A DNA stretch of 6,088 bases from an uncultured archaeon (lineage in GTDB: Archaea; Asgardarchaeota; Lokiarchaeia; Sigyniarchaeales; Promethearchaeaceae), in contig CAYRPF010000087.1 in the NCBI GenBank assembly GCA_964426185.1, positions 1 to 6,088 on the forward strand, written 5' to 3'. Position numbers and translations under genes: made by a program. Below the pieces are notes generated by a model. The model was not told the DNA's origin, searched no databases, and worked only from the letters and a program-made list of their open reading frames with translations. This document shows, in pieces, positions 3 to 5,783 of the stretch (within the stretch, counting starts at the first letter, position 1; each line of letters starts with the position of its first letter).

Positions 3-1220
3 ATTCCCATTTCAGATAATGAAGTAAAGGCGGCATTTCAATTTACTTCTTTGATAATCGACGATAATGGTCCAAGAATTACAGGGGATCCAAGCACACA
101 TGCTGCAGCAAAGGAAATAAAGGAAGAATTTCAGAAATACTGCGATTCGGTGGAAGAAGAATCTTTCTCCGTTCATCCAAAAGCATTTCTCGGATGGATT
201 AAGCTGATTGTTGTATTGTATATTATGGCTACCGTTGCATTATGGTTCAAAGTTCCTTTTATTGCAGGAATTCTGATTAGTGTTGGGATTCTTGCTATGG
301 TATTGGAATTTTTTCTATACAAAGAATTTATCGATCCGTTTTGGCAAAAAAAAACAGGGATAAACATTGTGGGAAAAATTGAACCCAAAGGAGAAGTAAA
401 ACAACAAATTTTAATCTCTGGCCATCATGACAGCGCGTTTGTTTTCAACTTTTTTGTTCACCAACCAAAACTTTATCCAGTGCGCATCTACGGAGGCCTC
501 GGTTCGGTCGGGCTGTTATGGATTCTTGCATGGGTTTGGGCAATAATCCAATTAATAAAACAGCAAAATCCGGGATGGACCATAGGAATCCAGATATTTT
601 CAGTAGTATCACTGGTTTTCGTGCTTCAAATGTGGTTTTTTCGCGGAAATAAAGGAACCCCAGGCGCAGGGGATAATCTTATTTCTGTGGCAATTGCCAA
701 TGAAGTAGCAAAGAAAATTGTCGCATTAAGAAAGCAGGGAAAAGGATTAGAACACACACGTATTTTTGTCTGTAGTTGGGATGGTGAAGAAGCAGGATTA
801 AGAGGTGCTCGCGATTTTGCTAAAAAGCATTACAAAGAATTGACAGAAATTCCCACATATAATTTCAATATGGATTGTCCCTATTACTTGGAGGAGTTCT
901 TCTTTATGACTTCAGATATTAATGGATCAGTAAAACTTTCTCAAGAAATGGCCGAAGAATGCGTTGAGATTGCACATTCTCTGGGTATTCCTTGCACAAC
1001 TAAACCAATTGCATTTTTAACTGGAGGCACTGATGCTGGAGAAATGGCAAAAATCGGAGTTAAAGCCACAAATTTAATGGGAATGCCATGGGGAAATTCT
1101 CAACGAGCATCAGTTTACCATACTCCACGAGATACGGTTGATAGCATCGAATCTCAAGCGGTTTTGGGAGCAATGAAAATTTTATGGAGATATATTGTAA
1201 AAAAGGATTCTGAAATATGA
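3..1220 (+). CDS. Membrane-embedded M28 family zinc metallopeptidase (5' end probably outside the window)
   Basis: M28 motifs occur in order: GPR-x-TG, NIVG, SGHHDS (His ligand), GAGDN (Asp ligand), DGEEAGLRG (catalytic Glu and ligand Glu), NMD, GGTD, YHTPRD (His ligand). Two hydrophobic hairpins (about 4 TM) are inserted. The frame is open upstream of the TTG at 51 back to position 3 (IPISDNEVKAAFQFTSL-IIDDNGPR), so the true start is probably upstream of the window. Confidence 0.9.
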   Translation: MPISDNEVKAAFQFTSLIIDDNGPRITGDPSTHAAAKEIKEEFQKYCDSVEEESFSVHPKAFLGWIKLIVVLYIMATVALWFKVPFIAGILISVGILAMVLEFFLYKEFIDPFWQKKTGINIVGKIEPKGEVKQQILISGHHDSAFVFNFFVHQPKLYPVRIYGGLGSVGLLWILAWVWAIIQLIKQQNPGWTIGIQIFSVVSLVFVLQMWFFRGNKGTPGAGDNLISVAIANEVAKKIVALRKQGKGLEHTRIFVCSWDGEEAGLRGARDFAKKHYKELTEIPTYNFNMDCPYYLEEFFFMTSDINGSVKLSQEMAEECVEIAHSLGIPCTTKPIAFLTGGTDAGEMAKIGVKATNLMGMPWGNSQRASVYHTPRDTVDSIESQAVLGAMKILWRYIVKKDSEI

Positions 1221-1240: not shown

Positions 1241-2323
1241 ATGAACCATAATCTGAGCCTAGTTATGAATATTTGGATGGGGATTGGAGCACTTTATATT
1301 TTCGCACTTGGAATTCTTTTACTCTGGCATGTAACTCGCCATTGGAATGATATTGTGAAGAAAAAATTTCGAATATCTGAATTGTTTGTTGTTGCCCTTT
1401 TTTTCTTTCAAGGGATACAAATATTCACTCTTTTTCACAATTCTGACTCTGAATCAATCCGTTGGCTTTCAATTTTTTTCTGTTCTCTTTTATTTCTGGA
1501 ATTTGTTATATTATTTGGAGGAAACATTTTACCCAATATCATTAAACAAAGGAAAAATCCACAATTTCGAGCAGAGTATACCTATTATCATTTTTTAGAC
1601 CAAATGGCACAAACTAAGACAAAGATTAGTAAAAAATCGTTGCTCTTCCGAGATTTAAGCAGAAAAGGTCTCCATTTTATTCAATTTTTAGGCGTGGTAT
1701 TAATTTATTGGTTATCAATTGCTAATTATCCCTACAGAATTTTAATTGGAATTGAACCAGATGAATTTCGAAATTTTTTCTTTTTCTTGATTAGTGCATT
1801 ATTTTGGATTATGATGATGATTGGTGATATTACCCGTATGGAGAACTGGCGCGTTCTTCCAAAATGGGCGTGGAAATGGTACAGTGTCTCTTTGGATTAT
1901 CCTCGGGAATCTTGGACAATAAATGCTGCAACACCCATTCTATTGGCAAATTTAATCTGGACTAATCGAATTTTTCCGATTCAAATACTCTTCATCGCAG
2001 TATGGATATCTTGTATTTCTGATGCAGCAGCAGCCCTGGTTGGAAAATTCTTCGGCCAATATCATTTAAATAAAATAGGTAAATTCCCAGAAAAAACATG
2101 GGAAGGATTAATTGCGGGAATTCTCACTACATTAATAGGAACTGGTGGAATTCTTTATTTCATACCCACTTCATTTCCACCTTTGGCAATCATTATGATT
2201 TTAGGAGGAACAGTGAGTGTATTTGCAATCACAGATTTATATTGCTCTACTTTAAATGATAATATCGTAAACAGCTTAGCCAGTGGAACAGTTATTTGGC
2301 TGATTTTTTTAATTTTTGCATAA
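1241..2323 (+). CDS. CTP-dependent diacylglycerol/polyprenol kinase family membrane protein (SEC59/DGK1/VTE5-like; cytidylyltransferase-like fold)
   Basis: 360-aa polytopic membrane protein with the family motifs RKGLH (RKxxH, R141, nt 1661), SDAAAALVGKFFG (D261, nt 2021), PEKTWEG (KTxEG, K285, nt 2093) and C-terminal NDN. Substrate cannot be assigned from sequence. Confidence 0.85.
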   Translation: MNHNLSLVMNIWMGIGALYIFALGILLLWHVTRHWNDIVKKKFRISELFVVALFFFQGIQIFTLFHNSDSESIRWLSIFFCSLLFLEFVILFGGNILPNIIKQRKNPQFRAEYTYYHFLDQMAQTKTKISKKSLLFRDLSRKGLHFIQFLGVVLIYWLSIANYPYRILIGIEPDEFRNFFFFLISALFWIMMMIGDITRMENWRVLPKWAWKWYSVSLDYPRESWTINAATPILLANLIWTNRIFPIQILFIAVWISCISDAAAALVGKFFGQYHLNKIGKFPEKTWEGLIAGILTTLIGTGGILYFIPTSFPPLAIIMILGGTVSVFAITDLYCSTLNDNIVNSLASGTVIWLIFLIFA

Positions 2324-2355
2324 TAACTTGATCGAATTTAAGGAAGAAATGTTTG

Positions 2356-4044
2356 ATGAGAGATTTTCAAGATACTCCTTGGTGGAAGAAAACTACAGTT
2401 TATCAGATTTATCCCCGTTCTTTTTATGACAGTAATGGTGACGGGATTGGCGATTTGATGGGTATAATCTCGAAACTCGATTACATAAAAGAAACCGGGT
2501 TTGAAACCATCTGGTTTTCTCCGTTCTACGATTCTCCCCAACGCGATTTTGGTTATGATATTCGTGATTATCGAAATGTTGCTCCAGAATACGGAACCCT
2601 GAAGGATGCAGAAGAATTAATTGAGCAAATCCATGTTCGGGACATGAAGATAGTCATGGATATGATTTTGAACCACACCAGCGACGAACACCCTTGGTTT
2701 CTGGAATCCAAAAAAAATCGAGATAATCCTAAAAGAGATTGGTACATATGGCGTGATGGAAAAAAACCGAATGGAAAAGCACCTCCTAACAACTGGATAT
2801 CTCAAATTGGAGGCTCAGGTTGGCACTATGATTCTAAAACGGATCAGTGGTATTGGGCAGCATTTTTACCATTTCAGCCAGATCTAAATTTCCGTAATCC
2901 CGAAGTTCAAGAAGAAATGTTAGATACCATGCGGTTTTGGTTAGATAAAGGAGTTGACGGATTTCGATTGGATATATTGGGTTCACTTTTCGAAGATGCA
3001 GAATTTCGGAATAATCCATTTACCTTCAAACTTTTACCCTCCGAATCCGATCCGGGCATGCTTTTTAGATCGGCCGAAATGACGATAAATCATCCAGATA
3101 CCATTGCATTTACGAAGCGTTTGCGGGCATTAACTGATGAATACTCTCCCGATCGTTTTATGGTAGGAGAAGTATTCGGTTCATACCCAACTATTCGAGA
3201 ATTTTGTGGAACGCCCGATTCTCCAGGAATTCATTCTGTTTTTCAATTTCAAACCTTGGAAACACCATTTTCCTATAAGGGTTTTACCCGATTATTGAAG
3301 GAAAGTGAAAAATGGTTTTCCGAACCATATGTGCCAACTTGGGCCTTTTCAAATCACGATCGCACCCGCAGGATCTCAGTTTTAGGCAATGATATAAGAA
3401 AGGCTAAATTAAACGCATTTTTCCAATTGACGGTGCGTGGGGTTCCTTACATTTATTATGGAGAAGAAATCGGTATGAAACAAGTCGATATACCCTTTTC
3501 AAATGCTCAAGATGGTCTGATATCCAAATTCCAAAAATATCCATCATGGATGTTGAGTTTACTGCAAAAACTTACCACCGGAGCGATTAACCGTGATGGT
3601 TGTCGAACTCCCATGCAGTGGTCTGCCTCCGAAAATGCAGGCTTTACAGCTCCATCAGTGAAACCGTGGTTACCAGTAGATCAACAATATGCTGAAATAA
3701 ATGTAGAAAAAGTCAGACAGGATCCTGATTCTATTTGGCATTTTTATCATCGAATTTTAAAACTAAGAGAAAAAAGACCGGTATTGGCAGCTGGCGCTTT
3801 AGAAATCTTGAAATCAGACACATTACCAAAAAAAATCTTAGGATATAAACGGTTGAAATTATTTGACAGTCACAGCGAAGAAATGTATATCTTTCTGAAT
3901 TTCTCCAATAAGGAGGTGAAATTCTCAAATATATTTGGAAATTTAAATTTATTGGCATCTACAACGATTCATTCCAATCCTCTTAAGGAGAACAAAATTT
4001 TTCTTAGCGGGTGGGAAGGAATAATAACGGAGAAGATCAAATAA
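2356..4044 (+). CDS. GH13 alpha-glucosidase (oligo-1,6-glucosidase/maltase group), cytoplasmic
   Basis: Motifs WWK, YQIYPRSF, DSNGDGIGDL, GYD, NHTSDEHPWF, QPDLN, GVDGFRLD (nucleophile Asp, nt 2971-2973), MVGEV (acid/base Glu, nt 3169-3171), NHD (Asp, nt 3358-3360), YYGEEIGM and RDGCRTPMQW. Start is ATG 2356 or the adjacent TTG 2353. No signal peptide is visible. Confidence 0.93.
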   Translation: MRDFQDTPWWKKTTVYQIYPRSFYDSNGDGIGDLMGIISKLDYIKETGFETIWFSPFYDSPQRDFGYDIRDYRNVAPEYGTLKDAEELIEQIHVRDMKIVMDMILNHTSDEHPWFLESKKNRDNPKRDWYIWRDGKKPNGKAPPNNWISQIGGSGWHYDSKTDQWYWAAFLPFQPDLNFRNPEVQEEMLDTMRFWLDKGVDGFRLDILGSLFEDAEFRNNPFTFKLLPSESDPGMLFRSAEMTINHPDTIAFTKRLRALTDEYSPDRFMVGEVFGSYPTIREFCGTPDSPGIHSVFQFQTLETPFSYKGFTRLLKESEKWFSEPYVPTWAFSNHDRTRRISVLGNDIRKAKLNAFFQLTVRGVPYIYYGEEIGMKQVDIPFSNAQDGLISKFQKYPSWMLSLLQKLTTGAINRDGCRTPMQWSASENAGFTAPSVKPWLPVDQQYAEINVEKVRQDPDSIWHFYHRILKLREKRPVLAAGALEILKSDTLPKKILGYKRLKLFDSHSEEMYIFLNFSNKEVKFSNIFGNLNLLASTTIHSNPLKENKIFLSGWEGIITEKIK

Positions 4045-4075: not shown

Positions 4076-4957
4076 CTATAATTCTTTCTTAATAATTAAG
4101 GAGCCAATGGGCACGTTAAAGTATGCAGCCACAACCTCGCATTTTGCTTTCAGTAGAAAATACAGCGATCCTTTCGGCCGATTTTCAGATTCATGCGAAA
4201 TACCTTCCAGTGACTCGAAATTACCCTGTCCTTTAGCGAGGATCAAATCGGATGAATGAAATGCTTGAGAAAATTCTGGGGAAACTTCCTCAAAAATCAC
4301 TCCAGGACATGCTGAACCTTCAACCACATTACAAATACTAGTGATCCCGATCTCTTCCGCTTCTTTTAGGGTTATATCATTAATTGCCGGCCCACCCCGC
4401 ACTCCATAAAAAATTCTCTTAGCGGGATAGTGTTTCTTCAGATATTCCACAAAGATTTTATCAAAAACTGCTTCACCGCAATTGTCACCGATGATCATGA
4501 TTTGAGAACTTTTTTCCAAATCCGCTTCAAACTCATCTAAAATTTCATCAGGAATATGAAGCTCGTTTATTTTTTCTAAATCTTCCCATAAATCAGAATT
4601 ATACGGAGCACCAAAATCAATAGTATTCCCAATAATCATAAATTTGACCACCAATTGGAGGGGATCTTGACTTTTAGCTAATTGAGCAGTTAATGAAGGA
4701 ATAAGTTTCAGCACACGGTTGTTATCACGTTGTTTTATTTTTCTATAAGGATCAATCTCATGAAGATATTCAGCTAATGTGTCATACACAATTTTCCCGT
4801 AATATGGAAGTTTGGTTTGATTTTCTTTTATTATTTTCTGCATTACGGCGCGTTGAATATCAATAATTGCATGATTTTCCATTTTAGGTTTCAATTTTCT
4901 TGCATTTTTCAAAACTTGGTTCAATAAACACGGAAAACATTCAGCATGGATCTTCAT
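4076..4957 (-). CDS. DUF89/ARMT1-like damage-control metal-dependent phosphatase (PH1575/AF1104-type subfamily)
   Basis: Motifs MKIHAECFPCLLNQ (N-terminal CxxC), DPY-x-x-IK, GNTIDFG, DNCGE, PAINDIT, KGQGNFESL and LKAKC. The family N-terminus matches ATG 4957 (293 aa), not the longer 5032 start in the ORF track. Confidence 0.92.
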   Translation of the reverse strand: MKIHAECFPCLLNQVLKNARKLKPKMENHAIIDIQRAVMQKIIKENQTKLPYYGKIVYDTLAEYLHEIDPYRKIKQRDNNRVLKLIPSLTAQLAKSQDPLQLVVKFMIIGNTIDFGAPYNSDLWEDLEKINELHIPDEILDEFEADLEKSSQIMIIGDNCGEAVFDKIFVEYLKKHYPAKRIFYGVRGGPAINDITLKEAEEIGITSICNVVEGSACPGVIFEEVSPEFSQAFHSSDLILAKGQGNFESLEGISHESENRPKGSLYFLLKAKCEVVAAYFNVPIGSLIIKKEL

Positions 4958-4982
4958 TCTTATTTTTCTTAAATACACTCCC

Positions 4983-5000
4983 GCATAAAAATTACCCTTT
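4983..5000 (-). promoter_or_regulatory. Possible BRE/TATA promoter for the DUF89 gene
   Basis: The minus strand reads AAAGGGTAATTTTTATGC, a purine-rich stretch followed by TTTTTAT about 28-34 nt upstream of ATG 4957. Specificity is weak in AT-rich DNA. Confidence 0.3.
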
Positions 5001-5050
5001 CTTAATTCTGCCTTCACCCATGAAGCTCCCACAATTATAAAAGGAAATTT

Positions 5051-5066
5051 ATAGAGATTTTAAATA
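5051..5066 (+). promoter_or_regulatory. Probable archaeal BRE/TATA promoter of the 231-aa gene (leaderless transcript likely)
   Basis: TTTAAATA at 5059-5066, preceded by purine-rich ATAGAGA, lies 29 to 22 nt upstream of ATG 5088. No Shine-Dalgarno sequence precedes the ATG. Alternative boxes are TTTATA (5048-5053) and TTATAA (5035-5040). Confidence 0.45.
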
Positions 5067-5087: not shown

Positions 5088-5783
5088 ATGAAGACCCAAA
5101 CCCCTCGAAAATTCAGCATAAAAGAAATTCATGCGGCGGGATTGACTTTGGAGCAAGTACGCACTCATAAATTATTAGTGGATAAAAGAAAAAAAGGAAT
5201 GAGTGCTGAAAACATCTCTTATTTAAAATCTCTTGGAATCCCCCCCCAATATACCGGCCCAATCCCTCAACCACGTGTGAAAAAAACACAACTTCCTAAA
5301 CAAAGAAAAGCACACGTTAAAAAGCCAAAACAAGTTACAAAATCGGCGGCAAAACCTGCAGTTAAACCAGTGAAAAAAGCGACTACTAAAACGACAACCA
5401 AGCCTACAACCAAGCCAACCACCAAAGTAACCACGAAACCTAAGGCTAAGGCAAAAACAGAAACTAAGCCAGCACCTAAACCAGTAACCAAAGTTACCAC
5501 GAAACCTAAAGCAAAATCGGAAACCAAACCAGTAAAAGTAGAAGAAAAAAATTCATTTAATAAAATTGAATCAAAATCTCTCGATCCAAAGGTACAAGAA
5601 GCAATCGCCAATATTTTCCAAGATACTCCCCTATTTTCGAAAAAGGCCGATTTACTTGAAGCGATTGAAAAACATACTGCAAAATTAACCGAATTAAAAC
5701 CCGATCAATTATTAAATCGATTGAAGAACGAAAATATAATAAAGTACTCTCGAACAGCCCCTCGAGGATATTCACTCAACTAA
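5088..5783 (+). CDS. Basic three-part protein: divergent ribosomal eL13 (L13e)-like domain, Lys/Thr/Pro/Ala-rich histone H1-like linker, predicted C-terminal winged helix
   Basis: Residues 7-50 (RKFSIKEIHAAGLTLEQVRTHKLLVDKRKKGMSAENISYLKSLG) follow the eL13 core pattern RGFSxxElxxAGlxxxxaRxxgixVDxRRkxxxxENvxxLk without gaps. Residues 61-150 contain 28 Lys, 19 Thr, 13 Pro and only 2 acidic residues. Residues 165-231 show three amphipathic helices followed by a hairpin-like IIKYSRTAPRGYSL. Confidence 0.75.
   Translation: MKTQTPRKFSIKEIHAAGLTLEQVRTHKLLVDKRKKGMSAENISYLKSLGIPPQYTGPIPQPRVKKTQLPKQRKAHVKKPKQVTKSAAKPAVKPVKKATTKTTTKPTTKPTTKVTTKPKAKAKTETKPAPKPVTKVTTKPKAKSETKPVKVEEKNSFNKIESKSLDPKVQEAIANIFQDTPLFSKKADLLEAIEKHTAKLTELKPDQLLNRLKNENIIKYSRTAPRGYSLN
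5379..5438 (+). repeat. Five degenerate in-frame 12-bp tandem repeats encoding xTTK
   Basis: gcgactactaaa / acgacaaccaag / cctacaaccaag / ccaaccaccaaa / gtaaccacgaaa encode ATTK TTTK PTTK PTTK VTTK. Confidence 0.85.
5421..5512 (+). repeat. Intragenic direct repeat with a 66-bp offset
   Basis: accaaagtaaccacgaaacctaaggc (5421-5446) and accaaagttaccacgaaacctaaagc (5487-5512) are 24/26 identical and both encode TKVTTKPKA. The two differences are synonymous. Confidence 0.85.

Follow-up and report, generated by a model that had tools for sequence, protein, structure and literature searches.

A tethered C-terminal winged helix on a divergent ribosomal protein eL13 of a Lokiarchaeial archaeon, with little sign of kinship to linker histones

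The window analysed here is a DNA stretch of 6,088 nucleotides from an uncultured archaeon of the Promethearchaeaceae (Asgardarchaeota; Lokiarchaeia), positions 1 to 6,088 of contig CAYRPF010000087.1 in assembly GCA_964426185.1. A gene near its end encodes the eL13 of this lineage, a divergent and N-terminally shortened form of the ribosomal protein in which the core is followed by a long, basic linker and, at the very end, by a winged helix (wH). An earlier note, made from the sequence alone, had likened this last domain to the globular domain of the linker histones H1 and H5 (the H15 domain, GH5 in H5). The wH fold is real, the homology to H1/H5 is largely refuted, and an H1 interpretation beyond the generic fold is not supported. 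The gene instead represents a known ribosomal protein in a new variant, with the wH as its accessory domain.

Results and discussion

Identity of the N-terminal core

Between residues 4 and 48 the protein resembles archaeal L13e (model NF008914, E 1e-8 to 1e-7), and with two profiles this open reading frame (ORF) is the sole match to NF008914 and to PF01294 in the genome, which is 92% complete. Exactly one eL13 locus was likewise found in 32 of 41 related genomes, closed ones included. Orthologues of the gene occur in relatives and in metagenomes at 37-64% identity, and those of sister genera clear the PF01294 cut-off with 25.5-44.4 bits. Profile A4, which consists of Asgard proteins with the window's sequence as its first row, retrieved the eL13 chains of archaeal and eukaryotic ribosomes from the PDB sequences (E 2e-18 to 1e-9). 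In the full-length AF2 model, two confident domains are separated by a low-confidence linker; residues 1-60 have pLDDT values above 90, and some 41 residues of the modelled N-domain can be superposed on eL13 chains at 2.7-2.8 Å and 29-34% identity. Lokiarchaeota are also listed as possessing eL13 (PMC9932298). Because of the uniqueness of the NF008914 and PF01294 match, the A4 matches, the superposition of the N-domain and this listing, the gene is assigned as the eL13 of its lineage.

Some features of the core speak against this assignment. It falls short of the curated cut-offs, with 31-35 bits where NF008914 requires 96 and 10-18 bits where PF01294 requires 24.9 (17.7 bits for PF01294 at the eL13 locus), and it lacks the N-terminal ~25 residues as well as the GRGFS motif. 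The core could thus still be a repurposed, non-ribosomal derivative.

Fold and conservation of the C-terminal domain

To gather relatives of the wH, a word-indexed search was combined with an exhaustive profile search over 1.84 billion representative proteins and with six-frame searching of the 41 related genomes, which gave an alignment (A3) of 45 domain copies from 35 protein clusters. The AF2 model of residues 160-231 built on A3 has a mean pLDDT of 92.7 and a pTM of 0.79, and on this model the C-terminal domain is a canonical winged helix: helix H1, a one-residue bridge strand, H2, H3 and a hairpin at 218-221/227-230 (in the model's own numbering, helices 8-20, 27-38 and 46-55 and hairpin 59-62/68-71). 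The full-length model reproduces H1 at 167-179, H2 at 186-197, H3 at 205-214 and the wing at 218-230. The three helices followed by strand-turn-strand that the earlier note had read at the extreme C-terminus are therefore present in the model; the translation of window positions 5580-5783 (+) is identical to the one it quoted, up to the stop, and nothing follows the wH, which ends at the TAA stop of ORF 5088-5783.

The sequence pattern of the domain is not a chance one, for it is kept in the six orthologues, with 69% mean column identity, and in the 45 copies. The wing is the part held most strictly: across the copies P225 and G227 never vary, and more than 90% keep Y220, S221 and R226. Basic residues are found in 96% of the copies at R226, in 87% at R222, in 87% at K186 (lysine itself in 39 of 45) and in 73% at K213.

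When the wH model was compared with the PDB by Foldseek, the Cullin-1 WHB domain (TM 0.59, 3.3 Å) and RIOK2 (TM 0.58, 3.0 Å) were matched, and nothing was found at E<=1e-3, the best value being 0.037; therefore no family can be assigned by fold. Pfam and NCBIfam yielded no family at cut-off for the domain. The hints below cut-off (Mnd1 HTH, TFIIE_alpha, CggR_N, nSTAND_NTPase4 and DUF5805) mean only that the domain is winged-helix-like, and the family profiles A2 and A3 returned noise only against the PDB sequences. A structure prediction of the wH homodimer scored 0.01, which gives no verdict and is evidence for neither side.

Relationship to linker histones

What the window's protein shares with H1/H5 is a three-helix wH with a hairpin wing, in a protein with a long, lysine-rich, low-complexity tail. 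That topology is common to all wH families and does not discriminate H15. The globule of linker histones is strongly basic, with conserved basic residues on H3 and on a second DNA-binding face. The wH of the window, in contrast, is near-neutral, its H3 face is acidic or variable, and it superposes on H15 more poorly than on many other wH families. H1 itself is built as a short N-terminal tail, the globule and a long basic C-terminal tail, whereas here the tail stands before the wH and forms the linker in a ribosomal protein; the earlier note had rightly cautioned that the order is reversed, with the lysine-rich tail N-terminal to the globule.

The profile searches agree with these differences. 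PF00538 was not matched at E<=10 in the Pfam hmmscan by the protein, by the domain or by five orthologues, and when the whole genome was scanned in six frames with PF00538 (E<=10), nothing came up at this locus, only one unrelated match on another contig (E 0.9). No H1/H5 chain was found among the PDB sequences at E<=10 with profiles A2 and A3. By Foldseek, H1.0, H1.4 and other H1 chains do appear, at E 0.10-0.23, TM 0.46-0.54 and rmsd 4.9-6.2 Å. In the structure-based ranking that the earlier note had proposed they stand behind cullin-1 and RIOK2, among matches that are all weaker than E 1e-3. In line with its warning that generic winged folds would fit as well, cullin WHB, Rio2, PBP2, MukF and Z-alpha domains superpose better than the H1 chains among these weak matches. 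The residue-by-residue parallel to GH5 was borne out by no profile or structure comparison. As for membership in H15, the fold is present, while the profile match, the tripartite order and the strongly basic globule are all lacking.

It might be argued that the wH is a true H1/H5 globular-domain homologue that has diverged extensively, given the same topology, the H1 chains among the weak Foldseek matches and one of the 45 family members that matches PF00538 at E 0.012. That single match, however, is below cut-off, PF00538 being one of 50 families hit at noise level, and PF00538 is silent for the window's own domain, its orthologues and the locus, just as the PDB sequence search with the family profiles is for H1/H5 chains. 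The rmsd values to H1 chains also compare badly with the 3.0-3.3 Å for cullin and Rio2, and the reversed domain order and the near-neutral charge point the same way. Taken together, we consider such homology very improbable.

The linker (residues 53-162) consists of 27% Lys, 18% Thr and 15% Pro with a net charge of +27, and its pLDDT falls below 50 within residues 86-159 (86-93 and 96-159) of the full-length model. Both its length and its sequence differ between orthologues. It contains a 12-bp tandem repeat of 2.7 copies at 5394-5425, and part of the linker was therefore born by recent duplication. Lysines stand at every fourth residue over residues 81-121 and then 123-147 (window 5328-5528).

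This tail invites another reading, in which the protein works outside the ribosome as an H1-analogous chromatin or nucleoid protein whose tail and wH compact DNA, the core being a relic or an RNA-binding handle. The K/T/P/A composition and the charge of the tail are indeed H1-like, the eL13 core is divergent and truncated, and the gene lies outside any ribosomal-protein cluster, next to an ARMT1-like phosphatase and a GH13 enzyme. On the other hand, this is the sole eL13 homologue here and in each relative that has one, so with a role in chromatin alone the ribosome would be left without eL13. Lokiarchaeota are listed with the protein (PMC9932298), and the wH is not basic and gives no H15 signal. 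A chromatin role is accordingly judged improbable. A literature search for linker histone, winged helix and Asgard returned nothing relevant. The bearing on the origin of H1 that the earlier note had suggested is left unsupported, and a tempting link between an Asgard protein and linker histones is removed: what looks alike is no more than a generic fold beside the lysine-rich linker of eL13.

Variation of the C-terminal module among Asgard eL13 proteins

The eL13 ORFs were extracted from 57 Asgard genomes, where 51 of the 57 match PF01294 and 41 carry a C-terminal helix-hairpin-helix (HhH) module, detected as HHH_5 at E<=1e-3, which makes the HhH type dominant in the phylum. A tethered C-terminal module is thus usual on Asgard eL13 and varies by genus; no paper describing the HhH module on eL13 was found in the library searched. 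Examples of the HhH type among the Asgard loci L023-L080 are L028:1099-1707:- and L058:1267-1710:-, and two HhH copies are seen in the eL13 of L068 and L078.

The window's gene and the HhH-bearing form share the N-terminal core (FS-x-x-E-I...VD-x-RRK...N-x-x-x-L-K), present as one copy per genome, and a basic linker that leads to a single small module at the C-terminus. They differ in that the window's gene has a wH in place of HHH_5, a longer linker rich in Thr and Pro, and the shortened, low-scoring core described above, without the ~25 N-terminal residues and GRGFS.

Within the order, all eL13 ORFs of the sister family whose C-termini were read show the core, a lysine-rich linker of ~80-100 residues and an HhH, with HHH_5 scores reaching 35-37 bits (cut-off 27). 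The window's own family is more varied. Two genera have the HhH; one has a pair of RNase-H1-N-like repeats, which at 20.6 bits stay just under the cut-off of 21; another has a short module without a Pfam match that is HeH/SAP-like by eye; and in the window's genus the wH is the terminal module in three of three genomes. In the window's genome, HHH_5 is confined to large unrelated ORFs. The RNase-H1-N-like form, L022:742-1683:-, is a 314-residue eL13 with a Pro/Lys/Glu repeat linker, and its two C-terminal repeats fall just short of the cut-off of PF01693 (Cauli_VI), the RNase H1 N-terminal domain.

Judged from these sequences, the most economical explanation is a replacement of the terminal module in an ancestral protein of the eL13-linker-HhH type. 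Because of this replacement, the K/P/A/T tail beside the wH would be a by-product of ribosomal-protein evolution and not the mark of an H1-like ancestor.

Eukaryotic eL13 has a long C-terminal extension, and eukaryotic rRNA has large expansion segments. The tethered modules of Asgard eL13 are in this respect a testable lead for the evolution of the ribosome towards eukaryotes. When L058:1267-1710:- was compared with yeast eL13 by phmmer, the envelope covered query residues 9-142 and chain residues 55-191, and so extends into the HhH region of the query and into the C-terminal extension of the eukaryotic protein. Homology of these two regions is possible.

Other carriers of the winged-helix family

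The wH belongs to a small, new sequence family with a very common fold, and eL13 shares this family with BBS/FG-GAP-like beta-propeller proteins. At E<=1e-3, 35 proteins were found among the 1.84 billion representatives, two of them evident repeat-driven false positives; the window's wH is a full-length, top-scoring member (E 7e-39). The family signature spans ~65 residues with F177, K186, L-K at 212-213 and the wing Y-S-R-x-x-P-R-G-Y-S-L, and the window's domain fits it. All taxonomically labelled members are from Promethearchaeota.

A search of other Lokiarchaeia proteins for the wing motif YSRxxPxGYSL had been proposed in the earlier note, and the wH family with this wing was found on beta-propeller proteins and on a membrane protein. 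On the beta-propeller proteins, which are 530-850 residues long, the wH stands C-terminally in one to five tandem copies after charged linkers. It is also found at the end of a multi-pass membrane protein, and in one or two copies before an uncharacterised helical domain. Further wH-type eL13 proteins, of 165-261 residues, occur in metagenomes. By the six-frame search of relatives, eL13 is the only wH carrier in the window's genus. The ESM Atlas feature matches all score below 0.9 and are leads only; the structure matches include a Promethearchaeota BBS-like propeller cluster, which agrees with the profile search.

The beta-propeller carriers (BBS7/BBS2/FG-GAP-like) are L005-L021 and P0010-P0013, P0015, P0021, P0031, P0034 and P0035. 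No N-terminal signal sequence was evident by eye in the proteins inspected, and by this reading the beta-propeller-wH proteins appear to be cytoplasmic. The neighbourhoods of their genes gave no operon-level clue; one of the genes, L082, adjoins genes for gelsolin, GPP34, a mu-homology protein (Adap_comp_sub) and TFIIB.

Proposed role of the tethered winged helix

Based on the results presented above, we consider it probable that the protein is a three-part form of eL13 whose wH is a lineage-specific, tethered accessory module on the large subunit, where it would bind duplex nucleic acid or a surface partner. The fold, the family, the three-part architecture with its disordered polycationic linker, the single eL13 copy and the variation of the terminal module are shown by the results above, whereas both the residence in the ribosome and the ligand of the wH are inferred. 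The eL13 core would anchor the protein in the 23S rRNA of the 50S subunit, and the basic disordered linker of ~110 residues would lie on the rRNA or sweep over it. The wH might then dock mainly through its conserved wing (R222, P225, R226 and G227) together with K186 and K213. Its target could be a nucleic-acid duplex, with rRNA helices such as enlarged expansion segments as the most plausible case, or a partner on the surface. The rRNA of Lokiarchaeota is reported to have supersized ES9 and ES39 (PMC7594248).

Duplex nucleic acid is favoured as the target because the modules that alternate with the wH belong to nucleic-acid-binding families, because the conserved basic residues occupy the classical backbone-contacting positions, and because RNA-binding or ribosome-associated wHs are among the structural neighbours. 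Proteins of the HhH and RNase-H1-N families are known above all as binders of duplex nucleic acids, and in classical wH complexes the backbone is contacted where H2 starts, where H3 ends and by the wing. In sequence, the window's wH showed no relationship to the N-terminal wH of Rio2, the wH domains of SelB or a mitoribosomal wH protein, and its RNA binding is putative.

Three observations on the wH itself sit uneasily with such a role. The domain is near-neutral (net charge +2; family mean +0.8, range -6 to +5), the exposed H3 positions 206, 210 and 214 are acidic in 42-47% of the copies, and the same wH sits on beta-propeller and membrane proteins, for which no reason to bind rRNA is apparent. 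The near-neutral charge and the acidic or variable H3 face argue against classical binding in the major groove, and protein binding would fit them equally well. The main rival, unlikely in our estimate, is a protein-protein interaction module in the manner of cullin WHB, Rpa2-WH or PBP2, whose wing would recruit a common partner to eL13 on the ribosome, the beta-propeller proteins and the membrane protein. In its favour are the lack of charge, the acidity of the H3 face, the kinds of domain that lead the structural neighbours, and the promiscuity of the wH across architectures. However, within eL13 the wH occupies the place of the HhH and RNase-H1-N-like modules of nucleic-acid-binding families; the window's genus has no other wH protein, so a homotypic network there is not to be expected; and the partner is hypothetical. 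Sulfolobus PBP2 (SSO6202), cullin WHB, Rpa2-WH and the MukF N-terminal WH have 8-23% identity to the window's wH with no common signature, and the wing YSRxxPRGYSL is specific to the window's wH family.

Much less likely than this rival are the chromatin and H15 readings treated above and the proposal that the wH binds left-handed Z-DNA or Z-RNA in the manner of Z-alpha, which we regard as very doubtful. The hallmarks of Z-alpha are a conserved Asn and Tyr on H3 and a Pro-Pro-x-Trp wing. Neither the H3 pair nor such a wing was found in the wH when it was compared with these reference residues.

Returning to a tethered module on the ribosome, a more specific and quite speculative proposal is that the YSRxxPRGYSL wH is a Promethearchaeia-specific targeting module for one shared site, which might be an enlarged expansion segment of the rRNA or else some other surface, of nucleic acid or of a filament. 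If this were true, eL13, the BBS-like propellers with their one to five copies and the membrane protein would be brought to the same place, and a primitive system that positions ribosomes or coat-like proteins in the Asgard cell could be envisaged. In a weaker variant, a tethered wH or HhH on eL13 may link ribosomes to DNA or to nascent RNA.

Gene layout and locus

The features of the gene and its neighbours are collected in Table 1. No ribosomal-protein cluster was found among the neighbour genes in the window.

Table 1. Coordinates of the eL13-wH gene, its parts and the neighbouring genes in the window
Feature	Position	Strand	Description	Basis
Whole gene	5088-5783, stop included	+	231 aa; eL13 core, polycationic linker and C-terminal wH	ORF list, translation
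eL13 core, aa 1-52	5088-5243	+	Divergent, N-terminally shortened, PRKFS replacing GRGFS	NF008914, family profile, model
Linker, aa 53-162	5244-5573	+	K/T/P/V/A-rich, net charge +27, predicted disordered	Composition, pLDDT
wH domain, aa 163-231	5574-5780	+	Wing signature YSRxxPRGYSL, without Pfam model	AF2, profile search
Helix H1, aa 167-179	5586-5624	+	Conserved hydrophobic I173, I176, F177	DSSP on models, column statistics
Helix H2, aa 186-197	5643-5678	+	First residue is the conserved K186	DSSP on models
Helix H3, aa 205-214, "recognition helix" position	5700-5729	+	Exposed face variable/acidic except K213	DSSP, column statistics
Beta-hairpin wing, aa 218-230	5739-5777	+	Best conserved part: Y220, S221, R222, P225, R226, G227, Y228	DSSP
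M28 peptidase with membrane segments	3-1220		Neighbour gene
CTP_transf_1-like membrane protein	1241-2323		Neighbour gene
GH13 alpha-amylase-family enzyme	2353-4044		Neighbour gene
ARMT1-like damage-control phosphatase	4076-5032	-	Neighbour gene

A TTTATA element lies at 5048-5053, ~35 nt upstream of the ATG and within the 55-nt intergenic spacer, and by its sequence would suit an archaeal TATA box with a very short leader. The sequencing runs listed were DNA runs from vents and sediment, with none of RNA, which carries no information on expression. Just past the end of the window there is a run of ~100 N (L001:2508-2607) with the same ~30 bases on either side, ATCATCACTGGTCGTATCATCGGTGCTCG, which is probably a scaffolding gap inside a repeat.
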